Program-made: the position numbers and the translations under genes
The notes under the pieces: model-generated
The model's input: the letters and a program-made list of their open reading frames with translations, nothing else
Told to the model about the DNA's origin: nothing
Databases searched by the model: none
Shown here: one piece after another, positions 63,055-63,417 of the stretch
Numbering within the stretch: position 1 is the first letter of the stretch
How the letters are laid out: each line of letters starts with the position of its first letter
Origin: Escherichia coli
Lineage (GTDB): Bacteria; Pseudomonadota; Gammaproteobacteria; Enterobacterales; Enterobacteriaceae
Reading direction: 5' to 3' (one strand)
Assembly (NCBI RefSeq): GCF_003334335.1
Contig: NZ_QOWQ01000004.1
Length of the DNA: 64,000 bases

Positions 63055-63417
63055 ATGGATTACGAATTTCTGCGCGATATTACCGGAGTGGTAAAGGTGC
63101 GTATGTCCATGGGGCATGAAGTGGTCGGGCACTGGTTTAATGAAGAGGTGAAAGAAAACCTGGCCTTGCTTGATGAAGTGGAACAAGCAGCGCACGCACT
63201 GAAAGGTAGCGAACGGTCCTGGCAACGGGCAGGGCATGAATACACCCTGTGGATGGACGGTGAAGAGGTGATGGTTCGCGCCAATCAACTGGAATTCGCT
63301 GGCGATGAAATGGAAGAGGGGATGAACTACTACGACGAAGAAAGCCTGTCGCTATGCGGCGTTGAGGATTTTCTGCAGGTCGTGGCGGCTTACCGCAATT
63401 TCGTGCAGCAGAAGTAA
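63055..63417 (+). CDS. yacL: small acidic protein of unknown function (UPF0231 family)
   Basis: ORF 63007..63417 trimmed to [22 protein letters not shown]. Confidence 0.85.

Follow-up and report, generated by a model that had tools for sequence, protein, structure and literature searches.

The gene yacL, contained in a 64,000-nucleotide stretch of the Escherichia coli contig NZ_QOWQ01000004.1 (assembly GCF_003334335.1; hereafter the window), encodes a small acidic protein of the UPF0231/YacL family, which others have shown to bind RNA polymerase directly, beside NusG, on the face of the enzyme where upstream DNA and nascent RNA exit. We propose, with moderate confidence, that yacL is a core gene expressed from its own promoter and that its product is a post-initiation accessory factor located on sigma-free polymerase beside NusG. 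The gene, its family and the binding to polymerase and NusG were already known. New here are a promoter footprint, an acidic loop present family-wide, the lack of a structural relative, the absence of YacL from the sigma70-rich polymerase peak and the observation that the members seen were all from Gammaproteobacteria; these are leads, not discoveries. An initial annotation, made from the DNA letters, had listed the function of the product as unassigned. This no longer holds for its partners, since YacL has been shown to bind polymerase and NusG (PMC8196013) and its mRNA is a target of the small RNA (sRNA) CyaR (PMC5861431), but it does hold for the biochemical effect on transcription.

Association of YacL with RNA polymerase and NusG

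Lenz et al. (2021; PMC8196013) reported 20 crosslinked residue pairs, obtained with three crosslinkers, that join YacL to polymerase beta, beta' and NusG. In the same study YacL co-eluted with polymerase at an abundance like that of NusG, the association was confirmed reciprocally by pulling down with tagged YacL, NusG and RpoB, and the authors placed YacL beside NusG near the upstream-DNA exit of the polymerase (PMC8196013). Since the lysate was treated with Benzonase (PMC8196013), the association is independent of long nucleic acid. A 2026 study by size-exclusion chromatography (SEC) and mass spectrometry again places yacL among the polymerase-associated proteins.

In Supplementary Data 3 of Lenz et al. 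(PMC8196013), beta K496 is crosslinked to YacL residues 62, 63, 64, 65 and 74, beta K844 to residue 74, beta K892 to residue 14 and beta' K40 to residue 6, while residue 124, in the tag of YacL, is crosslinked to NusG residue 154; data sets from the other baits add links of beta 496 to YacL 63, 64 and 72. Two intra-polymerase links of the same list, beta 891/892-beta' 50 and beta 505-beta' 321 (PMC8196013), connect the contact sites of YacL to one face of the enzyme. On the predicted structure described below, the N-terminal hairpin of YacL appears to point at the zipper and flap tip, while the central sheet (residues 62-74) would be turned to the protrusion and the C-terminus to the KOW domain of NusG. 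This orientation takes K844 and K892 of beta as flap residues, with K892 beside the flap-tip helix, K496 of beta as part of the protrusion, and K40 of beta' as located in the zipper region that precedes the zinc-binding domain.

We re-read the SEC profiles of that study, given as intensity-based absolute quantification (iBAQ) values (PMC8196013), and expressed them relative to beta (Table 1). Polymerase beta peaks in fractions 18 and 28, and sigma70 peaks in fraction 18. YacL is zero in fractions 1-21 and has its peak in fraction 28, as do NusG and NusA. YacL thus accompanies the NusA- and NusG-bearing, sigma70-poor polymerase and is undetectable in the sigma70-rich population. Lenz et al. appear to have computed co-elution over fractions 23-31 only (the last columns of their protein-protein interaction table) and left the sigma70 split without comment.

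Table 1. iBAQ values in the two polymerase peaks of the published SEC profiles (PMC8196013)
Protein	Fraction 18	Fraction 28	Ratio to beta, fraction 18	Ratio to beta, fraction 28
beta (RpoB)	5.8e8	1.27e9	1	1
sigma70	4.3e8	1.1e8	0.74	0.087
YacL	0	2.3e8	0	0.18
NusG	2.8e6	2.3e8	0.005	0.18
NusA	1.1e5	7.0e8	0.0002	0.55

In the eluate from YacL carrying the sequential peptide affinity (SPA) tag, the list of links is dominated by self-links of the pyruvate dehydrogenase (PDH) complex (AceE, AceF and Lpd), with no YacL-PDH link there (Supplementary Data 3, PMC8196013). The complex is probably a contaminant. On the chromosome the aceEF-lpd genes come shortly upstream of acnB, a nearness that we note as a coincidence.

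Protein family, predicted fold and acidic loop

The UPF0231/YacL family is small, with 278 matching representatives found in a search of 1.84 billion cluster representatives (E<=0.001). An alignment of 72 diverse members (27-67% identity), to which the following counts refer, showed that full-length members are single-domain proteins of 116-132 amino acids (aa), all of them acidic, with isoelectric points (pI) of 4.05-4.95 and net charges of -10 to -25. No domain fusions were found in the family, the longer members being explained by mis-called starts or expanded acidic loops. G102 and D105 are invariant, M1, F5, W27, G60, C101 and F116 are conserved in at least 90% of the members, and S18, M19, H21, E22, E31, Y93, D94, E96 and F106 in 78-89%. 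The protein of the window carries the conserved positions of the family, including the motifs SMGHE...W and CG.EDF; compared with the K-12 member (P0A8E5) it is the same protein, with a full-length match, the same acnB-yacL-speD synteny and no difference. The AFDB50 matches listed were all family members, and those with a named organism all came from Gammaproteobacteria; the orders among them were Enterobacterales, Vibrionales, Alteromonadales, Aeromonadales, Oceanospirillales and Cellvibrionales.

An AlphaFold2 (AF2) model built on the family alignment (predicted local distance difference test [pLDDT] 87.8, predicted template modelling score 0.79) describes an alpha/beta protein with strands at residues 3-7, 13-17, 56-59, 63-67, 71-76 and 98-102 and helices at 22-32, 36-49 and 103-118. 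Among solved structures, the nearest folds were CdiI-type immunity proteins, DUF4176 type VII secretion system chaperones and PUR/Whirly-like folds, all of weak resemblance. Structure prediction, which the initial annotation had recommended as a check, gave a confident model but no structural relative that suggests a mechanism. On this model H21, E22, C101, G102 and D105 (encoded at 63115-63120, 63355-63360 and 63367-63369) are located where helices 22-32 and 103-118 have their N-terminal ends, and may form one site, either for a metal or for a contact.

The least confident part of the model is a short acidic loop that is predicted to be disordered (Table 2). The wider segment containing it (residues 80-92) is variable in sequence, measures 8-19 aa and has a net charge of -2 to -8; Lys or Arg occurs in it in only 6 of the 72 members, and in some members it is expanded to about 45 aa with its acidity kept. 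Since the composition is conserved without conservation of the sequence, an electrostatic role is indicated.

Identity, start codon and conservation of yacL

The yacL ORF (open reading frame) runs from an ATG to a TAA at 63415-63417 and encodes a 14-kDa product with 25 Asp and Glu versus 10 Lys and Arg residues. Its description in the initial annotation as a 120-aa, strongly acidic ORF proved correct, with a pI of 4.45, a net charge of -15 and exact agreement with the coding sequence (CDS) annotated in RefSeq as "yacL: protein YacL". The same record has acnB at 60282-62879 and the end of speD, on the minus strand, at 63455, so that the convergence with speD noted earlier also stands. The length of the ORF is by itself no evidence of a gene, as yacL is overlapped by antisense ORFs (94 and 74 aa). 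However, residues 1-117 match positions 1-121 of the Pfam model UPF0231 (PF06062; E=6.1e-40), the NCBIfam model NF003574 ("protein YacL") gives 261.6 bits (cutoff 197), the median dN/dS (ratio of nonsynonymous to synonymous substitution rates) is 0.032 at dS 1.35 in comparison with 69 Enterobacteriaceae orthologues, and mass spectrometry has provided quantities for the protein (PMC8196013). The gene is under strong purifying selection, and the full-length family match, the low dN/dS and the detection of the protein establish it as real.

Two in-frame ATG codons could start the protein. A 136-aa ORF beginning at ATG 63007 was ruled out: this codon is found in only 14 of 79 species and is within a segment missing from many genera, and homologues begin at M1. 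As a Shine-Dalgarno sequence, GAGGA, is present within 20 nt before the yacL start in 79/79 Enterobacteriaceae upstream regions, 63055 was preferred to 63007. A 1-kb stretch around yacL was matched in 5426/5426 complete E. coli genomes (at least 80% query coverage in 5418), and the order acnB-yacL-speD was present, by RefSeq annotation, in 5426/5426. The ORF is therefore E. coli yacL (UniProt P0A8E5 in K-12), a monocistronic core gene of the Enterobacteriaceae. A Keio deletion of yacL exists, indicating that the gene is non-essential.

Promoter, terminator and flanking sequences

For the analysis of the upstream region, 80 orthologous Enterobacteriaceae loci were fetched with a single YacL protein as query, and their upstream regions were aligned. 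The promoter search suggested by the initial annotation had a mixed outcome: a strict two-hexamer sigma70 scan of 62600-63700 gave no promoter, whereas phylogenetic footprinting, used instead, found an extended -10 element (Table 2). The block CTGCGATAAT is invariant in 79/79 Enterobacteriaceae species, whereas the flanking spacer and the 5' untranslated region (UTR) vary, with indels, and it is intact in 5 aligned loci with 0.8-3.2 kb inserted after acnB. The predicted start A is likewise invariant (29/29 aligned sequences), whereas the three bases before it vary. Since the invariant CTGCGATAAT and +1 A are combined with retention of the block despite kilobase insertions and with a terminator upstream, the footprint supports the assignment to yacL of its own promoter just downstream of the acnB terminator, as had been guessed from the single sequence. 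At the -35 position the species carry CTGTTT or CTTTTT, which matches sigma70 poorly and lies within a conserved T-rich block. A promoter of this kind, with C always at -13 but no -35 element, may be suited to E-sigmaS. The extended -10 element is a feature of Enterobacteriaceae yacL and is not shared by distant homologues.

Two further elements were seen in this region. The T-rich block upstream of the -10 element (62969-62980) could serve as a binding site for a regulator or belong to a promoter of the sigmaS type. In the 5'UTR (63012-63034) there is an inverted repeat of 7 bp, GCAATGC/GCATTGC, within a segment of about 24 nt that is confined to sequences of the Escherichia, Citrobacter and Kluyvera types and is missing from most other genera.

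Table 2. Features of the yacL region, in window coordinates
Feature	Position	Strand	Evidence or remark
acnB intrinsic terminator: hairpin 62913-62942, then T-run	62913..62949	+	RNA fold
T-rich block CGCT(G/T)TTTTTCT, -37 to -26 relative to the predicted start	62969..62980	+	29/29 aligned Enterobacteriaceae genera
Putative extended -10 of yacL: TG 62991-62992, C at -13, GATAAT 62994-62999	62991..62999	+	invariant block
Predicted transcription start (A), 7 nt past the -10 hexamer	63006	+	footprint-based prediction
Shine-Dalgarno GAGGAA, 6 nt before the ATG	63043..63048	+	GAGGA in 79/79
yacL CDS (120 aa + stop), UPF0231/YacL family	63055..63417	+	RefSeq, profiles, dN/dS, AF2
Predicted disordered acidic loop, codons 81-90	63295..63324	+	only place with pLDDT <50 (AF2)
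Hairpin between the yacL and speD stops	63423..63450		folds of -27.4 (+) and -28.1 (-) kcal/mol
speD, 3' part, convergent, open to the window end	63455..64000	-	RefSeq annotation and ORF

The acnB terminator that the initial annotation had placed upstream of yacL was borne out by RNA folding: the hairpin, which starts 34 bases after the acnB stop and is followed by a U-run, folds at -25.2 kcal/mol (z -3.6), a value equalled by 0/200 shuffles. A simple terminator scan missed it, probably because its loop is too long for that scan. At this place other genera carry hairpins of their own, each followed by TTTTTATTT; thus, the terminator function is conserved but the sequence is not. The spacer between acnB and yacL (62880-63054 in the window) is an insertion hot spot, measuring mostly 141-380 nt in Enterobacteriaceae but 0.8-3.2 kb in several genera (hot-spot loci L044, L060, L071, L073, L075, L086 and L088), and in many genera it contains palindromic repeat-like units, CCCTCTCCC...GGGAGAGGG.

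Downstream of yacL, a second hairpin separates the two convergent stop codons. As TTTATTTACT follows this hairpin on the minus (speD) strand only, yacL has a hairpin but no canonical U-tract of its own. The gene is a published example of down-regulation by Rho-controlled antisense transcription (PMC6847712), which fits the convergent layout of yacL and speD. In Salmonella, several Citrobacter species and Kluyvera (L022, L023, L026, L078, L090 and others), speD is not found within 4 kb downstream of yacL, so that this layout is not universal.

Expression and regulation by CyaR

In the O157:H7 strain Sakai, yacL mRNA rose by log2 +3.17 (about 9-fold) at the transition to stationary phase, in a cluster holding RpoS-dependent genes (PMC2241611). 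It is also the top target of CyaR in RNA sequencing after MS2-affinity purification (MAPS), with 370-fold enrichment (Lalaouna et al., PMC5861431), and repression by CyaR was confirmed with northern blots and a lacZ fusion (PMC5861431). Expression of yacL would then be set by its own extended -10 promoter, induction on entry into stationary phase and post-transcriptional repression by the cAMP-CRP-dependent CyaR.

The CyaR sRNA itself was verified by Rfam on locus L001. A scan of its seed region against yacL gave a best value of -19.4 kcal/mol, no better than 58/200 shuffles, and the best candidate site within the ORF (63084-63101) showed no synonymous-site constraint; for these two reasons no pairing site is assigned. 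Folding the whole CyaR-yacL duplex gave a meaningless result, and a permissive Rfam search of 62000-64000 returned chance-level matches only.

Proposed role of YacL

In the role that we favour, YacL would ride with NusA and NusG on polymerase that is free of sigma, be it core or elongation complex, rather than on the sigma70 holoenzyme. Its N-terminal hairpin and central sheet appear to be the parts with which it docks on the beta flap, the N-terminal zipper region of beta' and the beta protrusion, and it would there cover surfaces that in the holoenzyme are used by sigma region 4 and upstream promoter DNA. The disordered acidic loop might shield basic exit surfaces and so affect how DNA, RNA or sigma region 4 bind again in elongation, termination or recycling; the idea that it is an electrostatic decoy, for either nucleic acid or sigma, much as has been proposed for the acidic tail of the non-homologous Gram-positive delta subunit, is put forward tentatively. 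More doubtful still is the boldest form of the proposal, in which YacL would be an overlooked general factor specific to Gammaproteobacteria, nearly stoichiometric with NusG, confined to sigma-free polymerase and to its flap/zipper/protrusion face, equipped with an acidic-loop decoy, functionally analogous to the Gram-positive delta subunit, turned up by a sigmaS-type promoter as cells enter stationary phase and turned down by CyaR.

Several points weigh against a post-initiation role: i) no effect of YacL on any step of transcription was found in the literature searched, and the Keio deletion is viable, ii) the published placement was built on an I-TASSER model (PMC8196013), iii) sigma70 self-links occur in the YacL-SPA eluate, so that exclusion of sigma is not proven (PMC8196013), iv) the nature of the polymerase peak in fraction 18 is not established, and v) no solved structure related to YacL hints at a mechanism. 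The flap, zipper and protrusion assignments given above are likewise putative.

The third of these points also bears on an unlikely alternative, that YacL acts in the sigma cycle. Induced in stationary phase, it would hold the sigma region 4/flap-tip site on core and bias the competition between sigma factors, with an outcome like that of Rsd reached by binding core and not sigma70. Such a role would suit the absence of YacL from the sigma70-rich peak, the links that join it to K892 of the beta flap and to K40 of beta', the rise of its mRNA within a cluster containing RpoS-dependent genes, and a promoter that lacks a -35 and has C at -13 throughout, which would fit promoters of E-sigmaS. It is opposed by the co-purification and crosslinking of YacL with the elongation factor NusG, by its abundance in growing fermenter cultures and by the sigma70 self-links in its eluate. 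The sigma-cycle and elongation roles rest on the same evidence and cannot be separated here.

We also consider it improbable that the association is adventitious or peripheral, a small acidic protein sticking to basic surfaces of polymerase while its real role is elsewhere or minor. The net charge of -15, the viable deletion with no phenotype found in the literature searched, and the abundant PDH-complex peptides that show the pull-down not to be clean would be expected in that case. However, site-specific crosslinks were reproduced with three differently tagged baits and three crosslinkers, YacL co-elutes with one polymerase population only, and both the very strong purifying selection and the conservation of the family across the Gammaproteobacteria seen speak for a specific function.

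A tie to AcnB or to central carbon metabolism, in which YacL might for instance regulate or partner AcnB or the PDH complex, has a slim chance of being correct. Although the adjacency of acnB and yacL, the abundance of PDH subunits in the YacL-SPA eluate and the connection that CyaR makes between yacL and carbon status could be read in this way, the two genes are separated by a terminator and a promoter, insertions are tolerated between them, the adjacency is lost in other lineages, and the published lists contain no heteromeric crosslink of YacL with PDH or AcnB.

In a 2012 review YacL is listed as a potential "alternative module" beside GreA, GreB, DksA, TraR and Rnk (PMC3616080), and in the model helices 22-32 and 36-49 do make up a short hairpin, in which residues 30-31 are acidic and conserved. 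A secondary-channel factor of the Gre/DksA kind is nevertheless very improbable and effectively refuted by the model and the crosslink sites, since YacL lacks the long antiparallel coiled coil with an acidic tip and globular domain, is crosslinked to beta K496, K844 and K892 and beta' K40, and was placed by the authors of the crosslinks at the DNA exit by NusG, which does not fit binding in the secondary channel. That YacL is an immunity- or antitoxin-like protein is hardly credible, the sole basis being its weak fold resemblance to CdiI-type proteins, which falls short of clear structural homology, while yacL is a core gene with no toxin-like neighbour in any context examined.

Defining what YacL does to transcription would bring a further component into the standard picture of elongation, termination or recycling in bacteria. 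The polymerase of E. coli is among the best-studied enzymes, and even so it carries this conserved partner at about the abundance of NusG.

Genome context and neighbouring genes

The adjacency of acnB and yacL is nearly universal in Enterobacteriaceae and recurs with a 31%-identical homologue (locus L006), in the order acnB-UPF0231-coaE-yacG; outside Enterobacteriaceae the genome context of yacL is variable. PADLOC gave 0 matches and PHROGs nothing significant for YacL. Matches to yacL in phage and plasmid collections were rejected as evidence of mobility, as they look like chromosomal DNA filed in those collections: they comprise a 290-kb Salmonella contig, an unannotated 4.4-kb record and replicons of 0.27-4.9 Mb, with 13/15 typed as non-mobilizable.

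In the neighbourhood, the mechanically called acnB ORF has 916 aa from 60129 (60129-62879), whereas RefSeq starts the gene at 60282 (865 aa), apparently with GTG. Further upstream, the product of yacH (58074-59927, minus strand) is a DUF3300 protein that contains SASPEQRQ-type tandem repeats and, as a run rich in His and Asp, DDDDHDHHHHDNDDYHHHD.

Comparison with known systems

The YacL of Bacillus subtilis and Staphylococcus is a PIN-TRAM protein of an unrelated family that shares the name only; several literature matches for "YacL" concern this Gram-positive namesake and are not transferable to the E. coli gene.

Rsd, which binds sigma70, resembles YacL in having been recovered or tagged alongside it in polymerase interactome work, and YacL is also induced at the stationary transition. 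It differs in that YacL is crosslinked to core subunits and NusG and is missing from the sigma70-rich peak. As regards DNA mimicry, in which surface carboxylates stand in for DNA phosphates and compete with DNA for a binding site, what could be seen in YacL was the net charge and the acidic loop.

A further parallel is the delta subunit (RpoE) of Gram-positive bacteria, a small polymerase-associated protein made up of a folded domain and a disordered, strongly acidic segment, which has been proposed to mimic nucleic acid and to aid recycling and specificity. The two proteins have no relationship in sequence, profile or fold, their lineages and binding sites differ, and the acidic segment is an internal loop in YacL but a C-terminal tail in delta. 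Since YacL is likewise small, bound to polymerase and provided with a conserved acidic segment predicted to be disordered, it may be regarded as a functional analogue of delta, by analogy only.
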